A DNA stretch of 64,000 bases from Vicinamibacteria bacterium (GTDB taxonomy: Bacteria > Acidobacteriota > Vicinamibacteria > Fen-336). The stretch's first letter is position 1. Each line of letters starts with the position of its first letter. Under the pieces are notes generated by a model. That model was not told where the DNA came from. It did no database searches and saw nothing but the letters and a program-made list of their open reading frames with translations. The DNA lies in contig JAMPXO010000012.1 of NCBI GenBank assembly GCA_023701125.1, positions 2,130 through 66,129 on the forward strand, written 5' to 3'. This document shows, in pieces, positions 15,660-56,608 of this stretch. The translations under genes were made by a program, and so were the position numbers.

Positions 15660-15682
<23 letters not shown>
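15521..15682. repeat. Tandem direct repeat: two identical 79-nt units (15521-15599, 15604-15682) separated by AAGC
   Basis: Read directly. Each unit contains a GGGGGC...GCCCCC hairpin and a CCGGCGCCGGA-TTCAC-TCCGGCGTCGG hairpin. The second unit supplies the last 7 codons and stop of metH (GQVPTPE*). Confidence 0.9.
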
Positions 15683-19367
<3,685 letters not shown>

Positions 19368-19453
19368 GGCAACGCGATTCTAGCGTCCGGCGCGTGCACG
19401 GCCCGCAGCTATGACGCGCGGGGATCGCCGGCGCTCGTGGCATTCTAGGGGTC

Positions 19454-20934: not shown

Positions 20935-21179
20935 CCGGTTCGTGCGATGTTCCTCCCCGAGCCGACGCCAGCCAGGCCCTGAGGACCCACGCGGTCTGCC
21001 CACGGGGGCGCGTCATCCCGCCCCGGCTGCCGAGGCTCTCTTTCTCCTCCGTCCATTCCTTCCAAGCGCGGGGAGGTGGCCGCAGGGCCGCTTCCCCGCT
21101 CCGGGCCTTCCGACCCTTCAAGATCCTGCCCGGCTTCTGAGTGCCAATCGAACGTTATGATCGGCCGCCTGAGGCCCCG

Positions 21180-22124
21180 ATGAACCAGCGAGCGCGGAAC
21201 GAAGCGGACCCCGGGGCGCGCCTGTCGATCGGCGCGCTCTCGCGGGCGACGGGGGTGCCCGTCGAGACCCTGCGCACCTGGGAGGCGCGCTACGGCTTCC
21301 CGGTGCCGGAGCGCAAGCCGTCCGGGCATCGCGTGTACCCGACGACGTCGATCCCGCGCCTGCTCCGCATCGCCGAAGCGCTGGCCCGCGGACACCGCGC
21401 GGGACAGGTGGTCGCCGCCTCCGACTCCGACCTCGACGAGTTGCTGCTGGTGACGCCACCGGCACTGCCGGCGCCGGCAGCGCCGGCCCCGGCGATGCGC
21501 AGCACGGAAGTCCTGCTCGACCACGTCGAGCGCTTCGACGCCGACCGCCTGACCCGGGCCCTGCTCGGCGAGTGGGCACGCCGCGAGCCCGTCGACTTCC
21601 TCGTGCAGGTGATCGCGCCGCTGGTGCGGGCGGTCGGCCTGGCCTGGGAGGAGCGCCGGCTCGAGGTGCGCCACGAGCACTTCTTGTCGGAGCGCGTCGG
21701 CGACCTGTTGCGCTCGCTGCGGCTGCCGCTCGAGGAGCGGGCGCGCGGGCCGCTGGTCGTGCTCGGCTCGCTGCCCGGCGAGAGCCACGGGCTCGGGCTG
21801 CAGATGGTGGCACTGGTGCTGGCCGCGGCCGGCTGCCGGCTGCTCTACCTCGGCACGGAGGTGCCGCCCGACCAGATCGCCGCCCTGGCCCGCGACCTCG
21901 GCGCTCGCGCGCTCGGCCTCAGCATCTCGGCCGCGACCGGCGGCGCCGCGTCGAACGCCCAGTTGCGCCGGCTGCGGGCCGCCCTGCCCCGCCGCATCCA
22001 GTTGCTGGTCGGCGGCGCGGGCGCGCCGAAGAAGAGCGAAGGCATCGAGGTCATCACCGATCTGGCGGTGCTCGACGCCTGGGCGCGGCAGCGCGTGGCC
22101 CGCTCGGAGCTGCGGCCGAGCTGA
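21180..22124 (+). CDS. CarH/LitR-type MerR-family regulator with an adenosylcobalamin-binding photosensory domain
   Basis: N-terminal MerR HTH (LSIGALSRATGVPVETLRTWEARYGFP), then W-x9-EH (AWEERRLEVRHEHF) and the B12-binding ExHxxG...SxS...GG pattern (GESHGLG, GLSIS, LLVGGAG). Confidence 0.85.
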   Translation: MNQRARNEADPGARLSIGALSRATGVPVETLRTWEARYGFPVPERKPSGHRVYPTTSIPRLLRIAEALARGHRAGQVVAASDSDLDELLLVTPPALPAPAAPAPAMRSTEVLLDHVERFDADRLTRALLGEWARREPVDFLVQVIAPLVRAVGLAWEERRLEVRHEHFLSERVGDLLRSLRLPLEERARGPLVVLGSLPGESHGLGLQMVALVLAAAGCRLLYLGTEVPPDQIAALARDLGARALGLSISAATGGAASNAQLRRLRAALPRRIQLLVGGAGAPKKSEGIEVITDLAVLDAWARQRVARSELRPS

Positions 22125-31504: not shown

Positions 31505-33604
<2,100 letters not shown>

Positions 33605-33728
33605 GAGGAGAGCCTCCTTGGCGGGCAGCCCCCGGCTGCCCGGGCGGCGGCCATTGTCTCCCGAATCGCGGCACATTCCGCCTTGTGCGCCGCGACGGAT
33701 CGCGTCAGAGTTGTCGCAGGGAGATCCC

Positions 33729-34535
33729 ATGGCGAAGCACGATCGCTGCTGCCTCTGGCTCATCTGCGGAGCCTTGCTGACGGGCGCGCCTGCACACGGT
33801 CAGAGCGAACCGCTGCGGGCCGACACGCTGTCGGTGCAGGCCGCGCGGGCGGCCCGCAACCACTACGAGAAGGCGCGCAAGGCCTTCGAGGAGCGGAAGG
33901 TCGAGCGCACGCTGCAGGCGCTGGACGAGGCGCTCCGGCTGTGGCCGGACTACCCCGACGCCCACTTCCTGCGGGCCAAGGTCGCCTACTACCAGAAGAA
34001 CTACGTCGAGGCCGGGCAGCACATGGCCCGCGCCGAGCAGGGCCTGGTGGCGGGCGCCGCGCTCCACGGCGATGCGGAGCGCGCACGCCGGACGGAGATC
34101 GAGCGCCTGATCGACCGCGAGCGCACGCGCCTCGACGAACTTCGCGGCGCCCTGGCCCAGGCACGGTCCGACGATCAGCGGCGACAGATCCAGGCCCTGA
34201 TCGACGACGCCGAGCGCTACCGGAGCGACCTCCAGCGCCGGGCCGCCGAGCCTCCGGCCGCGGTGCAGGCAGCGCCCGGCCTGCCGCCCGACTACGATTT
34301 TTTCGGCGGCAACATCCTGCTCCGCCTCGGCCGGCGCGAGGAGGCCGCGGAGCGGTACCGCAAGGCGATCGCGGTGAAACCGGACCACGCCGACGCCATC
34401 AACAACCTGGCCAGCCTCTACCTCGACGCCGGCAAGCCGCTGCTCGCCCTCGACCTGCTGCAGCAGGCGGAGACGAAAGGCGTCAAGGTCAACGAGGCGC
34501 TGAAGCAGGCCGTGCTCCACGCCGTGGGGCGCTGA
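33729..34535 (+). CDS. Secreted TPR/coiled-coil protein (paralogue A)
   Basis: Signal peptide, then TPR blocks (LRLWPDYPDAHFLRAKVAY, AINNLASLYLDAG). It is a paralogue of 37333-38133. Confidence 0.8.
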   Translation: MAKHDRCCLWLICGALLTGAPAHGQSEPLRADTLSVQAARAARNHYEKARKAFEERKVERTLQALDEALRLWPDYPDAHFLRAKVAYYQKNYVEAGQHMARAEQGLVAGAALHGDAERARRTEIERLIDRERTRLDELRGALAQARSDDQRRQIQALIDDAERYRSDLQRRAAEPPAAVQAAPGLPPDYDFFGGNILLRLGRREEAAERYRKAIAVKPDHADAINNLASLYLDAGKPLLALDLLQQAETKGVKVNEALKQAVLHAVGR

Positions 34536-34616
34536 CCCGGCGACCCCGCAGGCGCTCGATCCGATTCGGGGCGCATTACACTGCGGCGGGAGCGCCGCCT
34601 GACCACCCTGACCCCG

Positions 34617-37274
34617 TTGCGGATCGACCGACCCGAAGAACCCGGGACGGAGTCCGTCGCGGTCGAAGATCTCCCCGCGGCCCCTCAACCCACGCTGCCC
34701 CCCGGGACCCGGGTCGCCGGCCGCTACGTGCTCGACGTGGTGCTCGGACGGGGCGGCTTCGGGGTCGTCTACCTCGCCCGCGACGAGCGCGAGGAGCGTG
34801 AGGTCGCGCTCAAGATCCTCCGCGCCGACCGCCTGACCGGGCTGTCGCGGCGCCGCTTCGAGCGCGAGGCCGAGATCGCGCGCCGGATCGCGCATCCCCA
34901 CCTCGTCCGCGTCCTCGATTTCGGCCCGACCGAAGACACGGTCTACCTCACGATGGAGCGGGTCCACGGCGAGACGCTGCGTGACCGGCTCGCGCGCGGC
35001 GCGCTCGCGGCCGACGAGGCGATCCGCATCGCCTCCGAGGTCCTGCAGGCACTCGAGGCGCTCCACTCGCAGGGTGTCGTCCACCGCGACGTCAAGCCGA
35101 GCAACGTGCTGCTCGACGAGCACGGCCACGCCCGGCTCGGCGACCTCGGCCTCGCCCGCCGCTTCGAGCGCGACGAGAGCCGCGCCACCGAGTCCTCCGC
35201 CCTGGTCGGCACCGTCGAGTACCTCTCACCCGAACAGGCGCTCGGCCGCGACCTCGACGGCCGCAGCGACCTCTACTCGCTCGGCGTCGTGCTGTTCGAG
35301 ATGGTCACCGGGCACCTGCCCTACGAGAACCGCTCGACGCTGGGCACGGTGCTGGCCCACATCACACAGCCCGCCCCCGACGTCAGGACCTCCGCGCCGG
35401 ACACGCCCTCGTGGCTCGCAGGGGTGATCGCGCACCTGCTCGAGAAGGACCCACAAATGCGCTACGCGGGGGCTCGGCCGGTGCTGGCCGATCTCGAACG
35501 AAGGCAACCGCCGCCGCGAGCCGGGCGGCGCGCAGGGGCGACGTTCTCCGCGCATCGGGTGGGTGCGCTCCTGCTGGCGCTGGCGGCCCTGGGCGCGCTC
35601 GGCCTCGGCTGGCTCCGGTTCGGCCAGGAGCGGCGCTTCGTGCGCGTGCTCGACGACGGCAAAGGCGCCTGCTTCGGCGTCGACAGCGAGAGCCAGGTGT
35701 TGTGGACGAAGTCGGCGCTGTGCGGGGCGGCGGCGTTCGGGCCCAACTTCGTCCCGGTTCGAGTGCAGAAGGACCGGACGTTGCTGGCGGCCATCCAGGC
35801 CAGGCGCGAGGACGACGTCGTGGGCTTGCACCAGCTGACCCTGCTGGAGCCGGAGTCCGGGGACACCGTGCGAACAGTGGAGCTGCCGAACGCCGCCCAC
35901 AGCTTCCCCGGCTTCGCCTTCCGGTACGGAGCCTCCATTGCCGCCTTCGACCTCGACGGGAACGGGATCGACGAGGTGCTGGTCACCTTCGCCCACCGCC
36001 GGCTCTGGCCGAGCTACACCGTGATCTACGAGCCCGCGATCGACCGCTCGCGCGTGCTGATGGCGTCGTCGGTCGGGCAGAGCGAGCCACGCGGGACGGC
36101 TGACGTGGACGGCGACGGGCAGCCCGAGATTCTCTTCGCCGGCGCCGCCAACCGCCTGGGCTGGTATCACCACGTGTCCGCCGTGCGCAGCGGCGTGGGC
36201 GCGCGCCCCACCGACAGGGGTTGGACGCCCGACAGCGACCTCGGCGGGCTCCACCGCGGCCTCGGCGTGTGGTTCGCGCTGGTCCCGGCGGATACCAACA
36301 CGGCCCTGCCGCCACGCCTGTCGACGCTCGGCGAGCGCCGGGTGCTGGCCTGGCCGCGCGGCAACGGTGGCGATCTCCACCTCGACCTGGACGGTTTCGT
36401 CGTCGACGCCTCAGCCGCGACAGCCCCGTCTCCTCGCCGCGCCGAGGAGCGGGAGCTCGCCTACCGTCGGTTGCGCGAGGCGCGCGTGCTGGAGCGCGAC
36501 GGCCGCGTGCGCGAGGCGGCCGGCGCCGTGCAGGCTGCGGAGCGCGCCGCGGCGACCGCGGGCGATGTCCTGCTCGCGACCTGGGCGCGGCGGCGGCATG
36601 CGGCCCTGGCCGTGGCCGCGGGCGAGCCGGCCCGCGGCGAGCGCGAATTCGAACGGCTGATGACCGCAACCGGGCCGGGCGAGGACTCGCGCGTCGCGCT
36701 CGACGCGGCGCAGAGCTTCCACCTGGCGGGCGACCTCCAGCGCGCACTAGCCTGGTACCGGCGGGCGTTGCGCACACCGAACCCGGAACTGGCCCGCACC
36801 TGGGAGACGCTCGAGGGCCTCGTCTTCGCCCTCGGCGAGACCGGCCGATGGGACGAGGCGGCGCGCGCGATCGAGGCCCGTGAGCCGAGCCAGCAGCTCT
36901 CGCCGGCGATGGTGAAGTTCCTCGCGGGCTACCTGGACTGGCGCCGGGGACGCCCGCCGGCGACGCCGGCGAACACGCCCGAGGTCGACATCCAGACCTA
37001 CTGGCGCCTGGAGTTCCAGCTCGCCGCCGGAGCGGACGCGGCGGCGGTGCTGCGCGAGGTGGAGGTCGAGAAGCCGCTGGCGTCGGAGAGCGTGGCCCTG
37101 CTGATGTCAGTCGAGTCCGAGTGCCTGGCCCGCCTCGGCCGCCGGGAAGAAGCGCTGGCGAAAGCCCGAGATGCGTTCGAGCGCGTCGCGGCGAGCCGGC
37201 GCTCGAGCCTGTACGCCCGCGTCCACCTGCCGATCGTCGAGTCGAGGCTGCGCAAGCTGGAGGCGGGCGGCTGA
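34617..37274 (+). CDS. Ser/Thr protein kinase with TM segment, FG-GAP/VCBS-like repeats and C-terminal TPR region
   Basis: Hanks kinase motifs GRGGFGVV, ALK, HRDVKPSN, DLG and SPE. These are followed by FDLDGNGIDEVLV and DVDGDGQPEILF repeats. Confidence 0.9.
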   Translation: MRIDRPEEPGTESVAVEDLPAAPQPTLPPGTRVAGRYVLDVVLGRGGFGVVYLARDEREEREVALKILRADRLTGLSRRRFEREAEIARRIAHPHLVRVLDFGPTEDTVYLTMERVHGETLRDRLARGALAADEAIRIASEVLQALEALHSQGVVHRDVKPSNVLLDEHGHARLGDLGLARRFERDESRATESSALVGTVEYLSPEQALGRDLDGRSDLYSLGVVLFEMVTGHLPYENRSTLGTVLAHITQPAPDVRTSAPDTPSWLAGVIAHLLEKDPQMRYAGARPVLADLERRQPPPRAGRRAGATFSAHRVGALLLALAALGALGLGWLRFGQERRFVRVLDDGKGACFGVDSESQVLWTKSALCGAAAFGPNFVPVRVQKDRTLLAAIQARREDDVVGLHQLTLLEPESGDTVRTVELPNAAHSFPGFAFRYGASIAAFDLDGNGIDEVLVTFAHRRLWPSYTVIYEPAIDRSRVLMASSVGQSEPRGTADVDGDGQPEILFAGAANRLGWYHHVSAVRSGVGARPTDRGWTPDSDLGGLHRGLGVWFALVPADTNTALPPRLSTLGERRVLAWPRGNGGDLHLDLDGFVVDASAATAPSPRRAEERELAYRRLREARVLERDGRVREAAGAVQAAERAAATAGDVLLATWARRRHAALAVAAGEPARGEREFERLMTATGPGEDSRVALDAAQSFHLAGDLQRALAWYRRALRTPNPELARTWETLEGLVFALGETGRWDEAARAIEAREPSQQLSPAMVKFLAGYLDWRRGRPPATPANTPEVDIQTYWRLEFQLAAGADAAAVLREVEVEKPLASESVALLMSVESECLARLGRREEALAKARDAFERVAASRRSSLYARVHLPIVESRLRKLEAGG

Positions 37275-37332
37275 CGAGCCAGGGGTCGCCCTGTGCAGCT
37301 CTTCGCGCCCCGTGTGTGGTCGGGCGCCCGGG

Positions 37333-38133
37333 TCAGGGCCCCACGGCCTGGAGCACGGCCTGCTTCAGCGCCCCGTTGACCTTGACGCCCTTCGCCTCGG
37401 CCTGCAGCAGCACGGCGCGGGCGAGCAGCGGCTGGCCGGCGTCGAGGTAGAGGCTCGCCAGATTGTTGATGGCCTCGGCGTGGTCCGGCTTGGCCGCAAT
37501 CGCCCTGCGATAGCGCTCCGCGGCCTCCTCGCGCTGGCCGAGCCGGAGCAGGATGTTGCCGCCGAAAAAATCATAGTCGGGGGGCAGGCCGGACGCCCCC
37601 ACGCCCGGCAACTCGCCGAGTTCGCGTTGGAGGTCGCCCCGGTCCCGCTCGGCGGTGTCGATCCGTTCCTGGAGTTCCTGTCGCTGTCCGTCGCTCGTGG
37701 CCTGGGCCTGGGCACTGCGCATCTGGTCGGTGCGCACGCGCTCGCTGTCGAGGTACTTCTGGAGTTCCTCCTTGCGCGCGCGCTCGGCGTCACCCTGGAG
37801 CGCTGCGGCGGCCAGCAGGGCCTGCTCGGCGCGCGCCATGTGCTGGGCGGCCTGGGCGTAGTTCTTCTGGTGGTAGGCGACCTTGGCCCGCAGGAAATGT
37901 GCGTCGGGGTAGTCCGGCCACAACCGCAGGGCCGCGTCCAGCGCCTCCAGCGTGGGCTCGATCTCGCGTCGCTCGAAGGCCTCGAGAGCCTTTCCGTGTT
38001 GGAGGCGGGCCGCCCGCACGGCTTGCACCGTAAGGGTGTCCGCCTGCACCGGCTCGCCCGGTCCGAAGGCGAGCACGCTGAGCAGCACCGCTCCGCAGAC
38101 CAGCCCCAGAAACCAGCGACCACTTGTGGCCAT
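37333..38133 (-). CDS. Secreted TPR/coiled-coil protein (paralogue B)
   Basis: At least about 60% aa identity by eye to 33729-34535, with long identical blocks. ATG 38133 precedes the signal peptide. Confidence 0.8.
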   Translation of the reverse strand: MATSGRWFLGLVCGAVLLSVLAFGPGEPVQADTLTVQAVRAARLQHGKALEAFERREIEPTLEALDAALRLWPDYPDAHFLRAKVAYHQKNYAQAAQHMARAEQALLAAAALQGDAERARKEELQKYLDSERVRTDQMRSAQAQATSDGQRQELQERIDTAERDRGDLQRELGELPGVGASGLPPDYDFFGGNILLRLGQREEAAERYRRAIAAKPDHAEAINNLASLYLDAGQPLLARAVLLQAEAKGVKVNGALKQAVLQAVGP

Positions 38134-38389
38134 CAGGGACTCTCCCCCAAACCGCCGACTGCGACGGCATCCAGCCCGGCGAGTCAGTGCTGCAGGACGC
38201 AAGCGGATCAACATGGGGACACCTCTACTCGAAACCTGCGAGAGCGTGGAGCAGACTCCGTGCCACCCGGCCGGCCTCGTGCCATCAACGAGTTGCAGTC
38301 ATCGCTGCGGCGATCCGTCGCCTGTGGGAGACGGCGTGTGTCCTCGGGTCGAGCAAGGCTGGCGCGCACGGGGGGCCTCAAGCTGTCGC

Positions 38390-38620
38390 GGCAGGCATCC
38401 GCGAGCGATAGCGGTGGGCGTAGCTCCGCGTCAGCTCGGCGCCGGAGAAGAAGATCAGCGACGAGTAGTGGACCGAGAGAGGAGCAGGACGACGGACCCC
38501 GCGCGCCATACGCGGAGGCGACGCCGGTGGTGCCGAGGAAGGCCCCGATCGCGAACTTGTCGGCCGTGAACCGGACGGCCCGCGGATGTAGGCGCCGACG
38601 ATCGGCTCCAGGTTCATCCA
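38390..38620 (-). pseudogene. Frameshifted remnant of a YihY/BrkB (RNase BN-like) membrane protein C-terminus
   Basis: Two minus frames together read ...EPIVGAYIRGP / AVRFTADKFAIGAFLGTTGVASAYGARG / LSVHYSSLIFFSGAELTRSYAH. The last block resembles the conserved YihY C-terminal W.Y.S..I.L.GAE motif. No intact ORF is present. Confidence 0.35.
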
Positions 38621-38711
38621 TCACGCGGGCCAGGCGGATGTGATGCGAGCGAGGACCACGGAGAACAGGGCGACCCGCCGAGGAATGTGGCCCGAGGCGG
38701 GAGAGGGCGCC

Positions 38712-38746
38712 GCAGAAACGACAAGGGGGCCGCTTTCGCGACCCCT
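38712..38746 (-). terminator. Intrinsic terminator after tRNA-fMet
   Basis: Minus-strand RNA folds as GGGGUCGC-GAAA-GCGGCCCC (8 bp including one G.U, GAAA tetraloop), followed by UUGUCGUUUCUG. Confidence 0.55.
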
Positions 38747-38777
38747 CTATCCGACTGGGTTCTGCTGATGATGGCGT

Positions 38778-38854
<77 letters not shown>

Positions 38855-38872
38855 ACAGATGACTCCTGAAAT

Positions 38873-41197
38873 TTAACCGGGCGGGAGCTCGCTGTCAACC
38901 ACCGTGGGCGGATCGTCCGGCAGCGCGTAGAGGCCGCCCTCGTCGTACACCAGCTTCCAGGCGGGCAGCAGGTCCAGCTTGCCGGCCAGGATCAGCGACG
39001 CGAGCGGGCCGCGCACATAGCGGTCGACCGTGCGCTGGGCCTCGTGCACGCCCTGCTCCAGGCTCCACGCCTGCCCGCAGACGAAGTCGAACGCCGCCGC
39101 CTCCAGCCGCAAGGCCGTCTCGTACTTGACCTGGAGCTCGAGCTCGATCGCATCGATCAGCCGGCGCACGACCAGGGCGGCGTCTTCGGGGCCGAGCGGA
39201 GCGAACTCGACCCGCTCGTCGATCCGGTCGAGGAGTTCCCTGGGCGCTGCCCCCGCAGCGGCCCCCAGGTGGGAGGTCATCACGATCACCGCGTGGCGCG
39301 CGTCGGCCGTGCGGCCGGCGCCGTCGGTCAGCCGGCCCTCGGCGAACAACGGCAGGCACGCCTCGAGCACCCGTGGGTGCGCCTTCTCCACCTCGTCGAG
39401 GAGCACGAGCGACCACGGGTTGCGGCGCAGGCCACCGGTGAGCTGGCCTTCGTCGGCCGGGCCGGCGTCACCGGGCGGCGCGCCGATCAGGCGCGACACC
39501 GAGTGCTCTTCCTGGTACTCCGCCATGTCGAGGCGCAACAGCCGCTCGCCGTCGTCGAACACGAACTGCGAGAGCAGCTTGGCCATCTCCGTCTTGCCGG
39601 TGCCCGAGGGGCCGCAGAAGTGCATCACGGCCAGCGGGCCGTTCTCGCGGCGCTCGCCCGAGAAGGCCAGCCGCACGCGGCGGGCGACCTGGTCGATGGC
39701 GGCCTTCTGGCCGACGAGATGGGAGGCGAGGAACGCCTCCAGCTCCAGCAACCGCGAGTGGTCGCCTTCGCCCAGCGCCAGCAGCACGCGGTCGACGGCC
39801 AGCCCGCGCTTCTGGGCCAGGACCTCGGCCACCTGGTGCGCGGTGACCTTGACCGTGCCCGCGGGCGCCGCTGCGTCGGTGCCGAGGCCGGGCTGTGGCA
39901 CCCGCGCGTGCGCGCAGGCCTTGTCGGCCACGTCGACGGCCTTGTCGGGCCAGCGGTGCTCGGGGTCGAAGCGGGCCGTCAGGTCGACCGCGGCGGCCAG
40001 CGCGGCCTCGTCGATCTCGACGCCGTGGTTCTCCTGCCACCGGCTGCGCCAGCCGCGCAGGATGGCGAGCGTCTCCTCGCGGGTGGGCTCGCCCACCGCC
40101 ACCTTCTCGAAACAGCGAGCGAGAGCGGAATCGGCCTCCACCTGTCCGGCGTACTCGTCGGCCGTCGTGGCGCCGATGCAGGAGATCTCGCCGCGGGCGA
40201 GGGCCGGCGTCAGCAGGTTGGCCGCGTCCGGGCTGCCGCGCCCCGTGGCCCCCGCGGCGACGACCGTGTGCAACTCGTCGAAGAACAGGATCACATCGGG
40301 GTTGGCACGGGCTTCCGCCAGCAGCGCCAGCAGCCGCTCCTCGAACTCGCCGCGGTCGGCGCCAGCCAGCAGGGCGCCCATCGGCACCTCCACGATGCGC
40401 CGGCCCTCGAGTGCCGCGTCCTTGCCGGACGCGATGCGGAGCGCGAGGCCCTCGACGACGGCCGTCTTGCCGACGCCGGCTTCGCCGACCAGCACCGGGT
40501 TGCGGCTGCCGGCCCGGGACAGGGCCTCGATCACCGCCAGCATCTCGGCGCGGCGGCCGAACACGGGGGGCAACTCGCCGCGACGCGCCAGCGCCGTGAG
40601 GTCGCGGCCGAAGCGGTCCAGCATCGGCGTCGCCCCGCGCACCGCGGCGGCGACCGCGACCGCGGCCCCGGCCTGCGCCACCGGCGGCGCGGCGAAGAAG
40701 CCCGCGACCGCCTGTAGCGCGCCGGCGTGCAGCGTGGGCACCTGGGCGCCGAGATCGACGAACAGCTTGAACGTCAGCGGGTCGGCCCCCTCGGCCATCG
40801 CGGCCACGAGGTGCAGGCCCGAGAGCCGCGGCGCCTCGGCCGCGAGCGCCTCCGCCGCCTGGAACAGCGCCTTGGTGACGAGGCTGCGGCTCATCGCGCC
40901 GCTCGGCTGCCTGGCGAGCGCACCCTGGCCGACGCGGTCACGCGCGAGCCGCCGCATCCTGGTGGCGTCGAGGGCGGCGGCCCGCATCACCTGGCCGAGC
41001 AGCGCCTCTTCGCGCGCAACCTCGGCGAGGGTCTGGCTGTCGAGGCCCAACTCGACCGGCTGCAGCTTGACCACCTTCTCGAGGCTCAACAGGCCCATCA
41101 GCAGGTGGGCGGGCTCGATCTTCTCGTGGCGGGAAGCGGCGGCCTCGCCGGCGGCGATCCGCCAGGCCAGCTCCGCGCCCGGGGTCAGCTTCATCAA
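38873..41197 (-). CDS. Clp/Hsp100-family double-ring AAA+ ATPase with non-canonical pore loops
   Basis: Clp_N repeats; D1 Walker A GEAGVGKT and Walker B ILFFDELH; D2 Walker A GPSGTGKT and Walker [10 protein letters not shown]. The pore loops read GADRGEFEE (canonical AKYRGEFEE) and GAPPGDAGP (canonical GAPPGYVGY). There is no M-domain-length insert and no obvious IGF/L loop. Confidence 0.9.
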
Positions 41198-41315
41198 GAT
41201 CTAGCTCCTCAAGGGCTCCCGGCAGGCACCTTTCGTCTGCCAGAGCTTGCCATGCCGCGGGCACACCGCAAGCCCCCCTTCGAATCCAGGTGAGCGTCTC
41301 GGCCTCGACGCCACG

Positions 41316-42035
41316 TCAGGCACCCTCGGACTCGACGCCCGGGGCGACCGGGGCGAAGGCCGTGGTCTGCGCGGTGAGCAGCTCCGCGTCGAGCGACGGC
41401 GTCGCCGCCGGGCCGCGCGGCGGCAGCGTGACTTCGCGGTCCCCCTCTTCGAGCTCCACCCTGTACACGGCGGCGCCGAAGGCCAGCCGGTCGCCATCCG
41501 CGAGGCGCGCGTGGGAAACCAGCGCACCGTTGACGCGGGTGCCGTTGGCCGAGCCGAGGTCCTCGACGGTCACCGCGTCGAAGCCGCGGACCACGCGGGC
41601 GTGGCGCTTGGAGGCCGTCGGGTCGGCGAGCACGACCTGGGCGTCGACGGCCCGGCCGCACACGTTCTCGCCGGGCACGAGGGCGACGCGGGTCCCGCCC
41701 GACTCGACGCGCAGCCAGGCGCTGCACACGCCGCGGCGGCGCTCGGGGCCCTGCTCCTCGACCAGCAGCACCAGCCGCGTCGAGCCGAGCGCGAGCACGT
41801 CGAGGTGCCGCACCGGGCTGAGGGCGGTGGGCCGTCCGTTCACCCGCAAGCCGCCGCCCAGGTCGTGGGCGACGATCCGCCCGCCGTCGCGGACGAGGCG
41901 CAGGTGGCGAGCCTCCAGCCCGGGCAGCGACAACTCGAGGTCGGCGCCCGGCCCGGCGCCGACCACGCAATCGTCCAACTCGGGCACCTCGGCCCGCGCG
42001 AGCCCGCCGTCTGCGCGGCGGCCGACCAGTTCCAT
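41316..42035 (-). CDS. Protein with two FHA domains
   Basis: The second domain has the canonical GR...SKRHARV...DLGSANGTRVNG pattern. The first is degenerate (GAG...ARHLRL...DLGGGLRVNG). Start is ATG 42035 inside a longer shadow ORF. Confidence 0.85.
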   Translation of the reverse strand: MELVGRRADGGLARAEVPELDDCVVGAGPGADLELSLPGLEARHLRLVRDGGRIVAHDLGGGLRVNGRPTALSPVRHLDVLALGSTRLVLLVEEQGPERRRGVCSAWLRVESGGTRVALVPGENVCGRAVDAQVVLADPTASKRHARVVRGFDAVTVEDLGSANGTRVNGALVSHARLADGDRLAFGAAVYRVELEEGDREVTLPPRGPAATPSLDAELLTAQTTAFAPVAPGVESEGA

Positions 42036-42051
42036 TCTCACGGCCCGACCC

Positions 42052-43113
42052 TCAGAGGACGCCGCGGGGATGATACCGATGGCACGCCGCGCAGTCGCGT
42101 ACCGCCGGCTCCCTGCGGTGGCAGTCGAGGCAGCCGGCCGGGTCCGGTCGCGGCAGCGGCAGGGCTGTCGCGGCGGCCACGTCCCCGTGGCAACTCGCGC
42201 AGGCCTGCGGGTGCCGCCCGTGGTCGAAACGGGCGACGAGACTGCGGCCCGCGCCTGCTGCGAAGCGGCCGCGCTCGGCGCCGGGGTGACAGCGCAGGCA
42301 GGGCGCCGCCAGCGCCCGCGCGGTGGTGACGGCCTCGCGCGCGACGGCCCGCTCGAGGTTGAACAGCAACCACGGATCGCGGTGACCGATCTGCGCGAAG
42401 ACCGTGCGGTCGTCCGCTTCCACCTCGGTCGCAATCGCCATCTCCAGGCCCGCCGCCTCCAGTTCCTGCGGCAGTACGACCGCGGCCCGCGGCACGGAGA
42501 CTGCGCCGAGCGGACCCTCGGGCGCATGACAACCCGCGCAGGCGTCGAAGCGCGGGCGGGCGAGGCGGGCGCGCGGACCGTGGCAGGCCTCGCAGGCCGC
42601 CTCCCCCGTCCGCCCCTCGCGACGGAGTTCGTCGAGGTGCCGCGCGTGGGAGAAGGCGAGGTCGAGCGAGCGCGCGGCCTGCGCGCGCGGGAGCGGCAGC
42701 GGATGGACGTCGAGCGAATCGAAGTGGCAGGTCGCGCAACGGTCGTCGGCGACCGGCGGCGACGGCGACCCGCGATGTTCGCCGTGGCAGGTCGCGCACC
42801 CGGCCGGAGCCTGCGCCGCGTGCGCGGTCGCGGCGAAGCGCTGGCCGTCGCCCGCGGCGTGGCAGCGCGCGCAGCCCGCGTCGCCGCGCCCGCGCGCGTG
42901 GCAATCCGCGCAACGGGTCGCCGCCGTCACATGGGGAGCGGCGAGCGGCCCGGGACTGAGCGGGCTGGGGCCGCCGGCGAGGTGCAGCAGCGCAGCCGCG
43001 GCTGCCGTCACCAGCGCCGCACCGCCCACTCGCCACAAGCCGCGGCCGGCGCCTGCAGCCACCAGCGGTCGCCGCGAGCGCGCACCGCTGCCCCACACGG
43101 GCGTGCGCGCCAT
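42052..43113 (-). CDS. Decahaem c-type cytochrome (c3/c7-like), N-terminally anchored
   Basis: Ten CxxCH motifs: CADCH, CARCH, CATCH x2, CEACH, CAGCH, CLRCH, CASCH, CLDCH, CAACH. F.H..H blocks and an N-terminal hydrophobic segment are present. The start overlaps the upstream stop (TGATG). Confidence 0.85.
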   Translation of the reverse strand: MARTPVWGSGARSRRPLVAAGAGRGLWRVGGAALVTAAAAALLHLAGGPSPLSPGPLAAPHVTAATRCADCHARGRGDAGCARCHAAGDGQRFAATAHAAQAPAGCATCHGEHRGSPSPPVADDRCATCHFDSLDVHPLPLPRAQAARSLDLAFSHARHLDELRREGRTGEAACEACHGPRARLARPRFDACAGCHAPEGPLGAVSVPRAAVVLPQELEAAGLEMAIATEVEADDRTVFAQIGHRDPWLLFNLERAVAREAVTTARALAAPCLRCHPGAERGRFAAGAGRSLVARFDHGRHPQACASCHGDVAAATALPLPRPDPAGCLDCHRREPAVRDCAACHRYHPRGVL

Positions 43114-43826
43114 CAGTAGATCCAGAAGCTCGAGCCGTGCACGGCCGCGAGCCCGATCAGGGCGCCGGAGACGAGCGCGTGGGCCAGCCGGGCAAGGCCC
43201 AGCGCCCCCTCGAGCCCGTGCTGCGTGTCGAGCTCCAGCTTCTCGCGGAGCAGGGTGCGCAGGTCGTCGAGCGTTTCCCGCTCGAGGTCCGTGACCGCAG
43301 GCCACGCGGCTTCGATCGCGGCCACGGGCGCGGCCACTTCGGCGGGTGCGGGCGGGCGCAGGCGGACGCGTAGCGCCGCGAGCTGCGGCGCGACGCCGGT
43401 GTCGAAGGCCTGGCGCGCGGCGGGCGGAAAGCCGGCGGCCAGCGTCCTCGCCTCCTCGGCGAGTTGTGCGACCCGGGCGGGGACGAGGGCCGCGGGCTCG
43501 CTGACCCGCAGGCGCTCGGTGAGCAGGCGCGGGATCTGCTTCACCAGGAGTTCGATCAACGCGGCCGAGGCCAGCGACAGCACGAGCAGCGAGAGCAGCA
43601 CGAGGCCCGTGCTCCCCCGCGGCCAGCGGGCGCCGACGTGGATGCAGGCGAGCACGAGCGCGAGCCCGCCGATCGCCCGGTGCGCGCGCAGCCAGGCGGA
43701 GGCCCGGAAGCCCGGTCGCAGCCGGTCCGGCAGGCGCACCAGCAGGCGATGGGCGGGAAACAGGGCGGCCGCGACGAACGCGAGCAGCGTCGCGAGGCCC
43801 ACCCACCCGGTCGCGCCGTGCGGCAT
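43113..43826 (-). CDS. His-rich polytopic membrane protein (possible b-type haem anchor)
   Basis: 3-4 TM helices carry conserved-looking His residues (FPAH, RAHRAIG, ACIHVG, AAVHG). TGATG overlaps occur at both ends. I recognise no family. Confidence 0.6.
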   Translation of the reverse strand: MPHGATGWVGLATLLAFVAAALFPAHRLLVRLPDRLRPGFRASAWLRAHRAIGGLALVLACIHVGARWPRGSTGLVLLSLLVLSLASAALIELLVKQIPRLLTERLRVSEPAALVPARVAQLAEEARTLAAGFPPAARQAFDTGVAPQLAALRVRLRPPAPAEVAAPVAAIEAAWPAVTDLERETLDDLRTLLREKLELDTQHGLEGALGLARLAHALVSGALIGLAAVHGSSFWIY

Positions 43827-45346
43827 CAGAAGCGGCTCCCGAACGCACGCGCCGCGCCGGCGCGGTCGCGGGCCGAGAGCCGGATCGACGACTCGTGCGG
43901 ACAGGCCTGCACGCAGGCGGGCCCCTCGCGCCGGCCCGCACACAAGTCACACTTGACCGCGCGCTCCTGGGCGCTGCCGTCGCTGCGGGCGCCGGCCTCG
44001 ACCATCAGCACGTTGCCCCACGGGCAGCCCTGCGCACAGTTGCCGCAGCCGATGCACGACGCCGCCGCGATCGTCACCTCGAGCGCGCCCCAGTCGCGGG
44101 TGATGGCGCCGGTCGGGCAGTCGAGCATGCACACCGGGTCGGTGCACTGGTGGCAGGCCGTGGGCACCAGCCAGCGGCCGAGGCGCTTGCCCTGGCGCAC
44201 GAAGCGCGGCACCCCGTCGTGGGAGTCGGCGCAGGCCGTCACGCAGGCGTCGCAGCGGGTGCAGGTCGCGAGGTCGATCAGCAGCGCGCTCTCGCCGTGG
44301 ACGAGCCCGGCCTCGCGCAGCGCGTCCATGGCCTGGGCCAGGCCGGGATCGGAGAGCGCTTCGCCGCGCTGCTCGAGGCGGGCGACGCCCGCGTCCCACA
44401 GCGCCTGTTCGACCTGGGGGTCGAGCGCGATCGCATCCAGCACGTCCGCGCGCGCCAGCCGCACCAGCTCCACGTGATCGAGCGCGTGCAGCTCGAACGG
44501 CCACGGCGTGGCGAGCAGCAGGCCGGCCTCGCCTGCGACGTCGCCGGCGCGCAGGTAGGTGACGACGCGCGGCCCGTCGGGCGCCGCGACGCCCACCTGG
44601 ACCAGTCCCCCGCGGACCAGCAGCAGCTCGCGCGCGGGGTCGCCTTCGGCCGCGATGCGCTGGCCGGGCTCGAACGAGCAGAGCTCGGCGCGCGCCGCCA
44701 GCGCCGCGACCCGCTCGTCGGGCAGGCCCGCGAACAGCGGTACCCCGCGCAGATGGCGGCCGAGGGCGCGCTCGCGGTAGCGGGCGTCGACGAAGGCGCG
44801 GAACGACGGGGCCGCGGCCAACAGCATGCGCAGCGCGGGCAGCTTGAGCAGCAGCACGCGCGTCGCCGACCGCGCGCGCACCGACGCGGAGACCGGGTAG
44901 CGCGAGAGCGCGGCCAGTTCGCCGAACACCTCGCCGGGCCCGAGCGCCTTTCGCGACGGGGCTTCGACGGGAGGCGCCCCGCGCCCGACCCAGGTCCGCC
45001 CGCCGGCATCGACTGCGGCACTGGCGTCGCCGTGACGGACCACGACGGGTCGCGCCTCCGCCACGGAGTAAGCCCCGAGCACGACCTCGACCTCGCCCTC
45101 CATGACGTAGAAGGCCGTGTCGGAGTACTCGCCCTCGCGGAGGATCTCCTCTCCGGCCGGGAACCGTGCGGTGCGCAGCCGCGGCAGCACCTTCTCCAGC
45201 AGCCGCTGCCGGGCCCGCTCGGGCACGGCGCTGAACAGCGGCAGCCCGGCCAGCTCCTCGAGCCGGGCGGGCGCCTGCAACTGCAGCCGCCGCTCGTGGC
45301 GGCGGCGCAGCGCGTCGCGATCGGGCGCCGGCGCCTCGGGCTGCAT
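43826..45346 (-). CDS. Fusion of two cyclic-nucleotide-binding (CAP-like) domains to a 4x[4Fe-4S] DmsB/NrfC/PsrB-type ferredoxin domain
   Basis: Two cNMP blocks (GEVFGELAAL, GDVAGEAGLL). Four Cys clusters follow: CTRCDACVTAC; CHQCTDPVCMLDCP; CIGCGNCAQGCP; CDLC...CVQACP. No Tat or Sec signal is visible. Confidence 0.85.
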   Translation of the reverse strand: MQPEAPAPDRDALRRRHERRLQLQAPARLEELAGLPLFSAVPERARQRLLEKVLPRLRTARFPAGEEILREGEYSDTAFYVMEGEVEVVLGAYSVAEARPVVVRHGDASAAVDAGGRTWVGRGAPPVEAPSRKALGPGEVFGELAALSRYPVSASVRARSATRVLLLKLPALRMLLAAAPSFRAFVDARYRERALGRHLRGVPLFAGLPDERVAALAARAELCSFEPGQRIAAEGDPARELLLVRGGLVQVGVAAPDGPRVVTYLRAGDVAGEAGLLLATPWPFELHALDHVELVRLARADVLDAIALDPQVEQALWDAGVARLEQRGEALSDPGLAQAMDALREAGLVHGESALLIDLATCTRCDACVTACADSHDGVPRFVRQGKRLGRWLVPTACHQCTDPVCMLDCPTGAITRDWGALEVTIAAASCIGCGNCAQGCPWGNVLMVEAGARSDGSAQERAVKCDLCAGRREGPACVQACPHESSIRLSARDRAGAARAFGSRF

Positions 45347-45400: not shown

Positions 45401-46606
45401 CTACAACGCCACCAGCTCCGCAGCCGACTGGCCGCGCGCCGCGAGCACGCGCTCGACGACCGCGGCGACGACGGAGTTGGGGGTCGAGGCGCCAGCCGTG
45501 AGACCGACCCGCAGCGGGCCCGCGGGCAGCCAGCCCGACGTGCTCCCGATGCTGCCGTCGACCACCGCGCGGTGCGAGATGGCCTCGGCTTCGACGCAGG
45601 CCGCGGAGTCGATGTGGTAGGTCGGCACCTTGTCGGCGCACATCTTCGCCAGCGCCTGGGTGTTGCTGGAGTTGTAGCCGCCGATCACCACCATCAGGTC
45701 GACCGCCCGCTCGGCCAGCAACTGGAGGACGGCGTCCTGCCGGTCCTGGGTCGCGGAACAGATCGTGTCGAACGCGCGGAAGCGGCTGGCCAGCGCCGCC
45801 TCGCCGTGGCGGTCCTTCATCGCCTGCCGCAGCCGCTCCTGGACCTCGAGGCTCTCGCTCATCAGCATCGTGGTCTGGTTGGCGAGGCCGATCCGCTGCA
45901 GGTCGCGGTCCGGCTCGAAGCCCGGCCCCGCCGCGTGCCCCAGCTTCTCCAGCAGCGTCGCGGCCGGCAACTCGCCGCGGATGAAGGCGCAGACGAGGTC
46001 GGTCTCGGGCAGGTTGCGCACGCACAGGTACTGGCCGCCGGCGAACTCCAGCGCCTGCGAGGCCGTTGCGCGCGTCTCCTCGTGGTAGTGCTTGCCGTGG
46101 ATCACCACGGTGAAGCCGTCCTGGGCGTAGCGCTTGACGTTCTTCCAGACGTTCAGCACCGAGCCGCAGGTGGTGTCGATCAGCACGCAGCCCTTGTCGC
46201 GCAGGTGGGACAGCTCGCCCTGGGTGACGCCGAAGGCGGGCAGCAGCACGACGTCCTCGACCGTCACCGGCGCGTAGCGTTCCGCCGGCGTCGGCGCCGG
46301 GTCGAGCTGGACGTAGCCCATCGCCGCCAGTCGGGCGTTGACGTCGGGGTTGTGGATGATCTCGCCGGACAGGAACAGCCGCTTGCCGGGGAACTTCTGG
46401 CGGGTCTCGTAGGCGTACTCGACCGCCCGGTCCACGCCGTAGCAGAAGCCGAACTCGCGGGCCAGGCGCAGGGTCAGCTCTCCCGCCCGGGCCGCGTAAC
46501 CCAGCTCGCGCAGGCGGTCGACCACCCCGCTGCCGTACTCCGCCTCGAGGATCGGGGCGACCTGGGCTTTCAGGCCGAGGCCCTTCTGGAAATAGGTCTG
46601 GCTCAC
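45401..46606 (-). CDS. ispH: 4-Hydroxy-3-methylbut-2-enyl diphosphate reductase (long form)
   Basis: GFCYGVDRAV, the three Fe-S Cys regions and SSNT are present. It has an N-terminal extension like the roughly 400-aa cyanobacterial-type enzymes. GTG start. Confidence 0.93.
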   Translation of the reverse strand: MSQTYFQKGLGLKAQVAPILEAEYGSGVVDRLRELGYAARAGELTLRLAREFGFCYGVDRAVEYAYETRQKFPGKRLFLSGEIIHNPDVNARLAAMGYVQLDPAPTPAERYAPVTVEDVVLLPAFGVTQGELSHLRDKGCVLIDTTCGSVLNVWKNVKRYAQDGFTVVIHGKHYHEETRATASQALEFAGGQYLCVRNLPETDLVCAFIRGELPAATLLEKLGHAAGPGFEPDRDLQRIGLANQTTMLMSESLEVQERLRQAMKDRHGEAALASRFRAFDTICSATQDRQDAVLQLLAERAVDLMVVIGGYNSSNTQALAKMCADKVPTYHIDSAACVEAEAISHRAVVDGSIGSTSGWLPAGPLRVGLTAGASTPNSVVAAVVERVLAARGQSAAELVAL

Positions 46607-46653: not shown

Positions 46654-47673
46654 ATGCAGTTCCAGAACCTCGCGATCGAATCGATGGCGTACGAGCTTCC
46701 GCCGGTCTCCGTGTCTTCGCGCGAGATCGAGGAGCGGCTGCGCCACGTCATGGGCAATCTCAAGGTGCCGACCCGCACCCTCGAGCTGCTGACCGGCATC
46801 GTCGAGCGCCGCTTCTGGAACGAGGGCACCCAGGTCCACGAGGCCGCCGCGCGGGTCGCCCGGCGCGCGATCGCCGCCGCCGGCATCGCCGCCGACGCGG
46901 TCGGCGTGCTGATCAACACCTCGGTCTCCAAGGACTACCTCGAGCCGTCGATGGCCAGCCTGGTCCACGGCGACGTCGGCCTGTCCGAGCGCTGCATGAA
47001 CTTCGACGTCTCCAACGCCTGCCTCGGCTTCCTGAACGGGATCGAGGTGGCGGGCCGGATGATCGAGTCCGGCGCCGCCGACTACGCGCTGCTGGTCGAC
47101 GGCGAGAGCTCGCGCCAGGTCGTCGAGTCGACGATCGACCGGCTGTCCGCCCCGGGCGCCACGGCCAAGGACTTCTGGGACAACTTCGCGACCCTGACGC
47201 TCGGCTCGGCTGCCGTGGCGATGGTGCTGTGCCGGGCCGACCGCTCGCGCACCACCCACCGCGTCAACGGCAGCGTGACGCTGGCGGACACCGCGCAGAG
47301 CCGGCTCTGCACGGGCACCGCCGAGCGCATGGTGACCGACTCCACGCGGCTGCTGAAGGCCGGCGTCTCGCTCGCCCAGAAGACGTGGCAGGTCGCGGCC
47401 GAACAACTGGTCTCCTGGTCGCCCGCGGGCATCCGCCGCTTCGTCTGCCACCAGGTCGGCGAGTCGCACATGCGCGCGATGTGCGACGCGCTGCGGATCG
47501 ACTTCAACAAGTGTTTCCTCAGCTACCCCACCCACGGCAACGTGGGCCCGGCCGCGGTGCCGCTGACGCTGGCGCTGGCCGCCGAGGCGGGCGAGCTGAA
47601 GTCGGGCGACCACGTCGCGCTGATGGGGATCGGCTCCGGACTCAACGTCACGATGATGAGCGTGACCTGGTGA
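46654..47673 (+). CDS. oleA: FabH-like thiolase, OleA (head-to-head acyl condensation)
   Basis: Thiolase fold with Cys (SNACLGF), His (CHQVG) and Asn (HGNVGPA). The call rests on the conserved oleABCD context. Confidence 0.8.
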   Translation: MQFQNLAIESMAYELPPVSVSSREIEERLRHVMGNLKVPTRTLELLTGIVERRFWNEGTQVHEAAARVARRAIAAAGIAADAVGVLINTSVSKDYLEPSMASLVHGDVGLSERCMNFDVSNACLGFLNGIEVAGRMIESGAADYALLVDGESSRQVVESTIDRLSAPGATAKDFWDNFATLTLGSAAVAMVLCRADRSRTTHRVNGSVTLADTAQSRLCTGTAERMVTDSTRLLKAGVSLAQKTWQVAAEQLVSWSPAGIRRFVCHQVGESHMRAMCDALRIDFNKCFLSYPTHGNVGPAAVPLTLALAAEAGELKSGDHVALMGIGSGLNVTMMSVTW

Positions 47674-56519: not shown

Positions 56520-56608
56520 CCTGTTCCCACCGCAGGAGGATCCTCCCGCCGGCTCGCCACCGCGCCGCGCACGAGGCGCCGCAGCCGGCTGCCAGGAGGA
56601 CCACTTCG

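Follow-up and report, generated by a model that had tools for sequence, protein, structure and literature searches.

What does a Clp/Hsp100 double ring do once the residues by which such rings thread their substrates are gone? Hsp100/Clp proteins serve as the textbook example of polypeptides being threaded hand over hand by tyrosines of the pore loops. The question is raised by a 64,000-nucleotide stretch of contig JAMPXO010000012.1 from a Vicinamibacteria bacterium, referred to here as the window, which encodes a Clp/Hsp100-like protein, P0001, at 38876..41194 (-). The initial annotation of this gene held that the pore-loop tyrosines of both rings were replaced by aspartate, and that the product was an ATP-hydrolysing ring that might not thread polypeptides in the usual way. 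It is proposed here, with a probability of roughly 0.55, that P0001 is a repurposed, non-threading, ClpP-independent Hsp100 paralogue whose role in an FHA/kinase-linked redox module is that of a scaffold or switch. Specialists would be surprised by the anatomical and evolutionary evidence, which is solid; its function is inferred.

P0001 has the N-D1-D2 architecture of a Clp/Hsp100 protein. Pfam places AAA at residues 235-346, AAA_lid_9 at 373-435 and AAA_2 at 522-650, and each of the two tandem AAA+ modules carries a Walker A and a Walker B motif, as expected of class I Clp/Hsp100 proteins. The NCBIfam models for ClpB, ClpA, ClpV, ClpG and ClpK all match, far under their cutoffs: TIGR02639 (ClpA) scores 461 against a cutoff of 993, TIGR03346 (ClpB) 517 against 1232 and TIGR03345 (TssH) 451 against 885. 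An AlphaFold2 model built on 120 relatives gave a predicted local distance difference test score (pLDDT) of 91. The best Foldseek matches to this model in the PDB are ClpC, ClpC1 and ClpB protomers, with template modelling (TM) scores of 0.83-0.85 normalised to the target, and the predicted fold is that of an intact Hsp100 protomer.

The gene itself is unremarkable. The open reading frame (ORF; 38873..41197 (-), stop codon 38873-38875) encodes 773 amino acids from an ATG at 41194, which is preceded by GAGGAG, or 774 from an alternative TTG at 41197. The G+C content at third codon positions (GC3) is 0.95, in a window of 70-77% G+C, and the codon-position pattern is that of a genuine gene.

In D1, the pore-1 loop (residues 277-286; 40337..40366 (-)) is one residue short of the family consensus GGTKYRGEFEE and has lost its tyrosine, as originally read. 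The corresponding loop of a paralogue is GADHRGEFEE, which places the aspartate of P0001 at the lysine position and shows that the tyrosine position itself is deleted. In D2, the pore-1 loop (residues 571-583; 39446..39484 (-)) has aspartate in place of the tyrosine of the consensus GSPPGYVGHEEEG. The proposed replacement of both tyrosines by aspartate therefore stands for D2 and fails for D1; a strict Tyr-to-Asp substitution is found in D2 only. The only aromatic residue up to 4 residues to either side of a pore-1 position of P0001 is the phenylalanine of GEFEE, which is common to all family members, and rescue of the pore by a shifted aromatic is thereby ruled out. Some other degenerate relatives carry a phenylalanine 3-4 residues downstream in D2. 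P0001 thus has neither of the aromatic pore-1 residues of class I proteins, in D1 (KYR) or in D2 (GYVG). Mutation of tyrosine to alanine at these pore positions eliminates or hinders degradation by ClpAP (PMC8666677).

The nucleotide-binding motifs are altered more selectively. Walker A and Walker B are intact in both rings, reading as first described: GEAGVGKT (residues 237-244) and ILFFDELH (302-309) in D1, and GPSGTGKT (528-535) and LVLLDEVE (596-603) in D2. The D1 sensor-1 (IGATT) and the D2 Arg finger are also kept. The D1 Arg-finger pair, reported initially as RCFE, lies in the segment ALARCFEKV (residues 357-365; 40100..40126 (-)), where the usual sequence is ALERRFEKV and the second arginine has become cysteine; RRF occupies this position in 108 of 120 aligned family members. 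The D2 sensor-1 reads TSHLG (N642H), and in the D2 sensor-2 region, QGVHEAQR (39032..39055 (-)), the arginine of the GAR/GVR motif is histidine (R717H; GAR to GVH). The D2 sensor-1, D2 sensor-2 and D1 Arg-pair residues are presumably contacts to nucleotide or to the γ-phosphate, as in characterised Hsp100s. From the set of sensor-1 Asn, sensor-2 Arg and Arg finger that marks a D2 motor ring, P0001 keeps only the last.

P0001 has likewise lost the means of docking to ClpP. By motif reading and alignment, the segment at 39215..39277 (-) holds the D2 sensor-1 TSHLG, a remnant AAAGAA and the retained D2 Arg finger LLDRIDE, and no IGF or IGL tripeptide occurs in P0001. The family alignment shows that the ClpP loop is missing through a lineage-specific deletion of ~37 residues, IGF/LGF included, in agreement with the absence of a docking tripeptide noted at first reading. 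A canonical role, as unfoldase or as partner of a protease, is very unlikely for P0001, which has neither pore tyrosines nor a ClpP loop. The aromatic paddles are gone from both rings with none nearby, and the sequence would thus permit neither canonical threading, as initially suggested, nor docking to ClpP.

The initial annotation also found no ClpB-length M domain, and this was corroborated by HMMER alignment to ClpB structures, in which residue 433 of P0001 stands opposite ClpB 394/403 and residue 449 opposite ClpB 519/530. As residues 433-449 span the place of the ClpB M domain, ~15 residues stand where an M domain of ~120 residues would be. ClpA aligns without a break (P0001 188-646 to ClpA 164-609). 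P0001 fits an unnamed Clp subfamily of ~780 residues without an M domain, found in Vicinamibacteria, Nitrospirota and Chloroflexi, with 43-70% identity over 95-100% coverage, and the C-terminal motif of this subfamily, W..V.DEGG.Y.LP, is present in P0001.

Distant members of the subfamily, from metagenome-assembled genomes (MAGs) of Thermodesulfovibrionales, Dissulfurispiraceae and Chloroflexi, carry GGTKYRGEFEE, GSPPGYVGH/YEEEG and a KKIGF, GIGF, RLGF or RMGF loop between sensor-1 and the D2 Arg finger, thereby retaining the IGF, LGF or MGF forms of the ClpP loop. Because these distant members keep KYR, GYVG and the ClpP loop, the ancestor of the family was a ClpP-coupled unfoldase built like ClpA.

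Loss of the pore tyrosines is not unique to P0001. Among the 120 closest 90%-identity clusters, ordered by the unweighted pair group method with arithmetic mean (UPGMA), 39 lack the pore-1 aromatics in both rings, 10 in D1 only and five in D2 only, and 66 keep both. The losses cluster in one clade of ~50% identity, whose few named members are Vicinamibacteria. In a wider set of 154 sequences, comprising 149 representatives of 50%-identity clusters and five reference family members, nine lack both aromatics and 23 lack that of D1 only. A strain-specific accident is therefore ruled out for the loss itself, as the orthologue and many relatives are also without the tyrosines. The particular Asp, R-to-C and sensor changes of P0001 are lineage-specific, and on the question of whether the Tyr-to-Asp changes would prove conserved, alignment decided otherwise: the aspartates are not conserved, but the aromatic loss is.

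Several members of the wider family sit in settings or architectures of their own. P0011, P0031 and P0223 (L003:7082-10340, L004:7104-10346 and L025:5850-8926) belong to the degenerate clade, have no pore aromatics in either ring, and each lie 30-90 nt 3′ of a VitK2_biosynth gene (futalosine-pathway, MqnA-like) on the same strand, which may be a second conserved context tied to quinone and respiration. No neighbour common to the whole family was found, and the contexts differ between a kinase-TPR gene, VitK2_biosynth and the FHA/cytochrome operon described below. P0250 and P0289 join ~800 residues of TPR repeats to Clp D1-D2, and in P0193, P0229 and P0236 the part fused to Clp_N-D1-D2 is a CHAT caspase-like protease domain; these fusions of 1225-1424 residues keep both pore-loop tyrosines.

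A scan of species genomes and metagenomes for close relatives of P0001 returned two kinds of gene. The first kind (P0002, P0003, L007, L016 and L017; 68-71% identical to P0001) lacks the D1 tyrosine (GADHRGEFEE), and in D2 it has GSPPGYVGH with the tyrosine kept, together with RR, TSNLG, a GAR/GVR sensor-2 arginine and an AAGF loop. This gene overlaps an upstream gene of 1701-1711 residues by 4 nt, an arrangement of translational coupling. The gene upstream of P0002 has Ser/Thr-kinase and TPR Pfam matches; the gene upstream of P0003 has no Pfam match on record, but tblastn matches the 5′ part of it to the window kinase. P0018, the next outgroup at 53% identity, shows equal coupling, to a kinase-TPR gene of 1295 residues.

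The second kind comprises P0004 (identical to the genes of L008 and L015), L018, L019 and L022, which represent three lineages and are 70% identical to P0001. Its locus is collinear with the window, running through an alpha/beta hydrolase, a FabH-like gene, IspH, the operon, a TPR protein and an S9 peptidase. Neighbour-joining (NJ) trees of 12 taxa group P0001 with this kind whether full-length sequences, N and C domains, or ATPase cores are used, and thus identify the second kind as the orthologue and the first as a paralogue. P0001 is accordingly a member of the operon-linked group: it is the last gene of the operon, groups with P0004, and lacks the D2 tyrosine and the ClpP loop.

The orthologue has gone further than P0001 in dismantling its motor. 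In D1, Walker A reads GVGRN or GVGRS, Walker B is deleted and sensor-1 is AVT for ATT. In D2, Walker B reads LLDGVE, with DG for DE and loss of the catalytic glutamate; sensor-1 is TSDLG; LAALVDE replaces LLNRIDE, with loss of the Arg finger; and both the pore loop and the ClpP loop are deleted. The D1 Arg pair (ARRFE) is kept though the protein's own D1 site is dead. The idea that P0001 would be challenged by an aromatic shifted back into the pore or by tyrosine-bearing orthologues thus finds no footing, as no shifted aromatic is present and the syntenic orthologue has no tyrosine, its D2 loop being deleted.

The orthologue is nevertheless under purifying selection. Ratios of nonsynonymous to synonymous substitution rates (dN/dS), calculated by the method of Nei and Gojobori (NG86), are 0.10 for L008 versus L018 (76 synonymous, 21 nonsynonymous) and 0.15 for L008 versus L022, comparable with those of IspH (0.08-0.10) or FabH and with that of the paralogue (0.18). 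Even the dead ATPase cores of this group are now constrained (0.11-0.21). It follows that the conserved function cannot require ATP-driven threading. The initial view of an ATP-hydrolysing ring is doubtful as a conserved property: D2 sensor-1, D2 sensor-2 and one D1 arginine are substituted in P0001, and in the orthologue, which evolves at dN/dS of 0.10-0.15, Walker A/B of D1 are gone together with the Walker-B glutamate and the Arg finger of D2.

P0001 compared with L008 gives an overall dN/dS of 0.30, unevenly distributed along the protein. The N domain is the most constrained (0.14; 81% identical to P0004), followed by the C-terminal domain (0.28; 67%), the D2 large domain (0.41; D2 identity 61%) and the D1 large domain (0.45; D1 identity 53%). 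Correspondingly, in the NJ trees the P0004 branch is several-fold longer in the ATPase cores only. A comparison of P0001 with L024, a strain 96% identical in DNA, found 13 synonymous and four nonsynonymous differences over the first 198 codons (dN/dS 0.11). ORFs are intact, at 732-773 residues, in every lineage sampled, and together with dN/dS values of 0.10-0.30 this indicates that the gene is not a pseudogene. What selection has kept is the overall fold together with the N and C domains; the chemistry of the motor has not been kept.

The N-terminal domain (residues 1-170; 40685..41194 (-)), the best-conserved part between orthologues, has eight helices in the AlphaFold2 model, in what is probably a Clp_N-like fold. 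Relatives of P0001 match Clp_N (PF02861), and full-length Foldseek alignments of P0001 to ClpC take in the N domain; in P0001 itself Pfam gives no Clp_N match at E<=0.01, and a PDB sequence search gave E 0.96 to a ClpC N domain. The N domain alone returned nothing significant from the PDB by sequence, so that its mode of partner binding could not be deduced. At the other end, a conserved C-terminal motif of 18 residues (38912..38965 (-)) is near-invariant in P0001-P0004, P0018 and the family consensus.

P0001 is encoded by the last gene of a conserved Vicinamibacteria operon, whose order is a protein with two cyclic nucleoside monophosphate (cNMP)-binding domains and a 4Fe-4S domain, a membrane protein, a decahaem cytochrome c, a double-FHA protein and the Clp-like protein. 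The initially suggested link to upstream FHA/cytochrome genes is supported by recurrence of the same operon in L008, L015, L018, L019, L022 and L024, across at least four lineages. The first gene (43826..45346 (-); 506 residues, 83% identical in L008) encodes a cytoplasmic protein that fuses two cNMP-binding domains to an NrfC/DsrO/HybA-type 4Fe-4S dicluster domain. The second (43113..43826 (-)) encodes a membrane protein of 237 residues with no Pfam or NCBIfam match, syntenic in L008, L015 and L022, and the third (42052..43113 (-)) a decahaem c-type cytochrome of 353 residues with 10 CxxCH motifs and an N-terminal anchor. Directly 5′ of the Clp-like gene lies the gene for P0121 (41316..42041 (-)), a double-FHA protein of 239-241 residues (Pfam FHA E 4e-22); every one of its orthologues (67-96% identity) occurs in this operon.

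Further features of these genes were recorded. The fusion at 43826-45346 (-) is unusual, in that its multi-cluster ferredoxin module is normally a periplasmic or membrane-associated redox subunit. The 237-residue membrane protein (L008:7326-8132) is the least constrained product of the operon, with dN/dS of ~0.8 for L008 versus L018 (nine synonymous, 17 nonsynonymous) and 0.59 versus the window. On a reading of the sequence only, the second FHA domain of P0121 is canonical (GR...SKRH...NG) and the first is degenerate, with GA for GR and EARH for SxxH. At L023:1096-3763, a relative of window 41310-43129, the cytochrome and FHA genes are 87% DNA-identical to those of the window. The L023 FHA protein is the closest to that of the window after L024, and the next gene there encodes a Zn-ribbon/Ser-Thr kinase/TPR protein, not a Clp-like protein; the contig stops short of whatever lies beyond.

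Downstream of the operon, a TPR protein of 293 residues (37333..38214 (-)) lies 3′ of the Clp-like gene, which it adjoins in opposite orientation in L008 and L022. Convergent with the operon is a Ser/Thr protein kinase of 885 residues (34617..37274 (+)), with a kinase domain and FG-GAP/TPR matches, which is not at this position in L008 and L022. A comparison of window 34536-38300 with L008:12353-13334 and L022:8879-9777 shows an inversion of the TPR gene and a kinase gene present in the window only, pointing to a local rearrangement beside the Clp-like gene.

Operon and flanks differ in divergence. Between the window and L008, operon genes (37333-45346) have synonymous divergence (dS) of 0.51-0.88, compared with 0.26-0.35 for the flanking genes (IspH 45401-46606, FabH-like 46654-47673 and S9 peptidase 31505-33763), and their nonsynonymous divergence (dN) is 3-5 times higher. 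Weaker codon bias, older alleles or recombination could be behind this. Across the syntenic orthologue loci, identity to the window is 82-96% for flanking genes and 55-83% for operon genes.

From these observations the following course may be outlined. A ClpP-coupled, M-domain-less, ClpA-like unfoldase family would have given rise to a duplicate that was recruited as the last gene of an operon for a cNMP-regulated Fe-S protein, a membrane protein, a periplasmic decahaem cytochrome and a cytoplasmic, phospho-threonine-binding double-FHA protein. In that setting it would have lost the pore-1 aromatics of both rings and the ClpP loop, and undergone the changes in D2 sensor-1, D2 sensor-2 and one D1 arginine. 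P0001 would then neither translocate polypeptides nor feed a protease; its double ring would act as an oligomeric scaffold, adaptor or nucleotide-dependent switch through the N and C domains. It may thereby join Ser/Thr-kinase/FHA signalling to the redox module, with a cNMP-regulated transmembrane haem/Fe-S module being assembled or regulated.

A change of function is the most economical reading of an orthologue that is constrained without its catalytic motifs, and of N and C domains that are conserved. Phospho-threonine signalling is suggested by the recurrent genetic ties of the subfamily with Ser/Thr kinases, TPR scaffolds and an FHA protein, and gene context points to the transmembrane haem/Fe-S module as the target. 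A more specific version is offered tentatively: P0001 may be a bacterial 'pseudo-Hsp100', a phospho-signalling scaffold that would form an FHA/Ser-Thr-kinase-controlled assembly platform or switch for a transmembrane multihaem electron conduit, and it might in addition be an Arg-finger-donating regulatory subunit of the kinase-linked paralogue.

Five considerations weigh against a repurposed, non-threading scaffold or switch. The tie of P0001 to the FHA protein, the kinase and the cytochrome module, from which its scaffold or switch role and physical partners are inferred, is one of adjacency alone. Other degenerate members of the family sit elsewhere, beside VitK2_biosynth, so a link to redox and FHA genes does not hold for pore-loop-less members in general. 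The orthologous group contains two deep lineages only, the window/L024 type and the P0004 type, and 'conserved loss' therefore rests on few independent events. NG86 estimates of dN/dS are approximate in a genome with 95% GC3. Finally, P0001 keeps Walker A and B in both rings, the D1 sensor-1 and the D2 Arg finger, and may consequently still hydrolyse ATP and work by a non-canonical grip.

This last point leads to the main rival, which is less probable by a clear distance yet deserves serious attention: that P0001 is an ATP-driven remodeller of a dedicated client, such as an FHA/cytochrome component, acting independently of ClpP through acidic or non-aromatic loops or by non-processive, Torsin-like action. 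The retained catalytic motifs, a modelled fold that is fully Hsp100-like, and ATPase cores that are 78-79% identical to those of the paralogue, which keeps its D2 tyrosine, are all consistent with such a machine, and Torsins are functional without aromatic pore loops (PMC5425593). The substitutions in P0001 (N to H at D2 sensor-1, R to H at D2 sensor-2, and RR to RC in D1) argue the other way, as does the faster evolution of the ATPase cores than of any other part. Above all, the orthologue has lost its catalytic motifs in both rings and remains strongly constrained, so the function shared by the group does not need hydrolysis.

It is unlikely that P0001 is instead a regulatory or inactive subunit that forms mixed rings with the kinase-linked, P0002-type paralogue and tunes or caps that motor, as ClpR does for ClpP and LAP1/LULL1 for Torsin. 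The two types share ~70% identity, their N domains and oligomerisation-relevant cores being much alike, and they coexist in MAG ACD2 (L007 and L008) and in metagenome sample 3300048592 (L002 and L022). In addition, the ARRFE retained by P0004-type proteins beside a dead D1 site recalls a degenerate AAA+ partner that donates an Arg finger in trans (PMC5425593). The two genes, however, lie at different loci with different partners, and the paralogue is not in the 64-kb window.

Neutral erosion of a decaying remnant toward a pseudogene is largely refuted and carries very little weight. Its appeal lies in the count of deviating positions: at 214 columns that are ≥90% conserved among 116 relatives, P0001 deviates at 30 and P0004 at 72, compared with 6-7 in ordinary members, and evolution is faster in the operon genes than in the housekeeping genes that flank them. 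The intact ORFs in all lineages sampled, the low dN/dS of the P0004 type and of the window N domain relative to L024, the present constraint on the degenerate cores, and a GC3 typical of expressed genes in this genome all contradict it.

The least probable explanation, a ClpV/TssH-like ATPase of an Fha/PpkA-regulated type VI secretion system (T6SS) or an anti-phage defence component, can draw on the FHA-kinase-ClpV links of T6SS (PMC3953482), the partial TIGR03345 match, the CHAT-Clp fusions of the wider family and D2-only PADLOC matches to DolB and PDC-M37B, but the TssH score is far below its cutoff, the PADLOC matches are to a generic D2 ATPase module and a kinase domain only, no T6SS structural gene or ClpP gene occurs in the 64-kb window or the syntenic loci, and the neighbours are housekeeping genes syntenic between genomes. 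Gene content of the window and syntenic loci thus rules out a T6SS ClpV identity, and the generic PADLOC matches and syntenic housekeeping flanks rule out a defence component.

The rest of the window is ordinary chromosome. A terminator-like hairpin, identified by consensus scan only, lies ~130 nt past the Clp stop codon (38726..38745 (-)). Two flanking genes encode large beta-propeller peptidases: a PD40/S9 prolyl-oligopeptidase-family protein at 31505-33763 (-), and a tricorn-like S41 protease (PD40, Tricorn_C1, PDZ_Tricorn and Peptidase_S41) at ~56600-59941 (+). A MerR helix-turn-helix protein with B12-binding domains, of CarH-like architecture (21141-22124 (+)), is near a full-length MetH, the B12-dependent methionine synthase (15660-19379 (-)).

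If P0001 is indeed such a 'pseudo-Hsp100', the recurrent loss of tyrosines in one Vicinamibacteria clade (39/120) would mark a whole class of non-threading Clp proteins that has gone unrecognised. Natural members of the family have done away with both tyrosines, with the loop that docks the protease and, in one lineage, with the catalytic motifs, and the fold, the N domain and the operon have been retained under selection, a sign that bacteria can put the Hsp100 scaffold to uses other than unfolding. The locus offers a concrete system in which to ask about the function of a non-threading AAA+ double ring, with TPR proteins, a Ser/Thr kinase and an FHA protein beside a cNMP-regulated multihaem redox module. 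The Joint Genome Institute (JGI) labels relatives of P0001 'ClpC', and the automatic label 'ATP-dependent Clp protease ATP-binding subunit ClpC' is misleading for dozens of acidobacterial protein clusters. Pseudo-AAA+ proteins are already known elsewhere; the organisms here are uncultured MAG lineages. No report of a natural bacterial Hsp100 without both pore tyrosines, or of an FHA/cytochrome-linked Clp paralogue outside T6SS, was found in the literature, which does not prove their absence.

How, then, does P0001 stand among the known systems? By fold and domain content it is in the class I Clp/Hsp100 superfamily, and it fails the defining tests of ClpA, ClpB, ClpC and ClpV. ClpA is the nearest in layout, sharing the N-D1-D2 order without an M domain and a single uninterrupted alignment, and the distant ~780-residue members add its KYR, GYVG and IGF/LGF/MGF loop; P0001, unlike ClpA, has neither the KYR/GYVG tyrosines nor the IGL loop, falls short of the TIGR02639 cutoff, and has an N domain without a sequence match. 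ClpB/Hsp104 gives the top sequence scores in the PDB and NCBIfam, and ClpB is also without a ClpP loop, but its M domain and pore tyrosines are missing from P0001, as is a TIGR03346 score above cutoff.

The ClpC form of the ClpP-docking tripeptide is VGF. ClpC and ClpC1 of Firmicutes and Actinobacteria provide the best structural matches (Staphylococcus aureus and Bacillus subtilis ClpC, Mycobacterium tuberculosis ClpC1), but P0001 lacks their short M-domain coiled coil, their ClpP-docking loop and both pore tyrosines. No insertion is present in its D1 small domain, where ClpC has the short M domain regulated by MecA/McsB. ClpV keeps its pore tyrosines and threads VipB. Like the P0001 locus, the T6SS threonine-phosphorylation pathway PpkA-Fha-ClpV combines genes for a Ser/Thr kinase, an FHA protein and an Hsp100-type ATPase (PMC3953482). 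The P0001 locus differs in having no T6SS structural genes, and P0001 falls short of the TIGR03345 cutoff set for ClpV/TssH.

The closest functional analogies would be with Torsins and plant SMXL/D53. Torsins are Clp/Hsp100-related AAA+ proteins that are naturally without aromatic pore loops, are thought not to thread processively, and are regulated by the degenerate AAA+ partners LAP1/LULL1 (PMC5425593). They are single-ring, ER-lumenal (endoplasmic reticulum) and eukaryotic, and have no Arg finger, whereas P0001 is a two-ring bacterial protein with its D2 Arg finger kept. The SMXL/D53 'atypical Clp ATPases' have an N, D1, D2 double ring and act as signalling scaffolds or repressors, not as known unfoldases (PMC9133912). 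Unlike P0001, they are nuclear proteins of eukaryotes in which an M domain is retained and EAR/RGKT motifs are present, and the two have no common operon or partners. The likeness is one of evolutionary fate, by analogy, and implies no homology of function. If the proposal is true, a 'pseudo-Hsp100' such as P0001 would give prokaryotes a counterpart to SMXL/D53 of plants or to the pairing of Torsin with LAP1.

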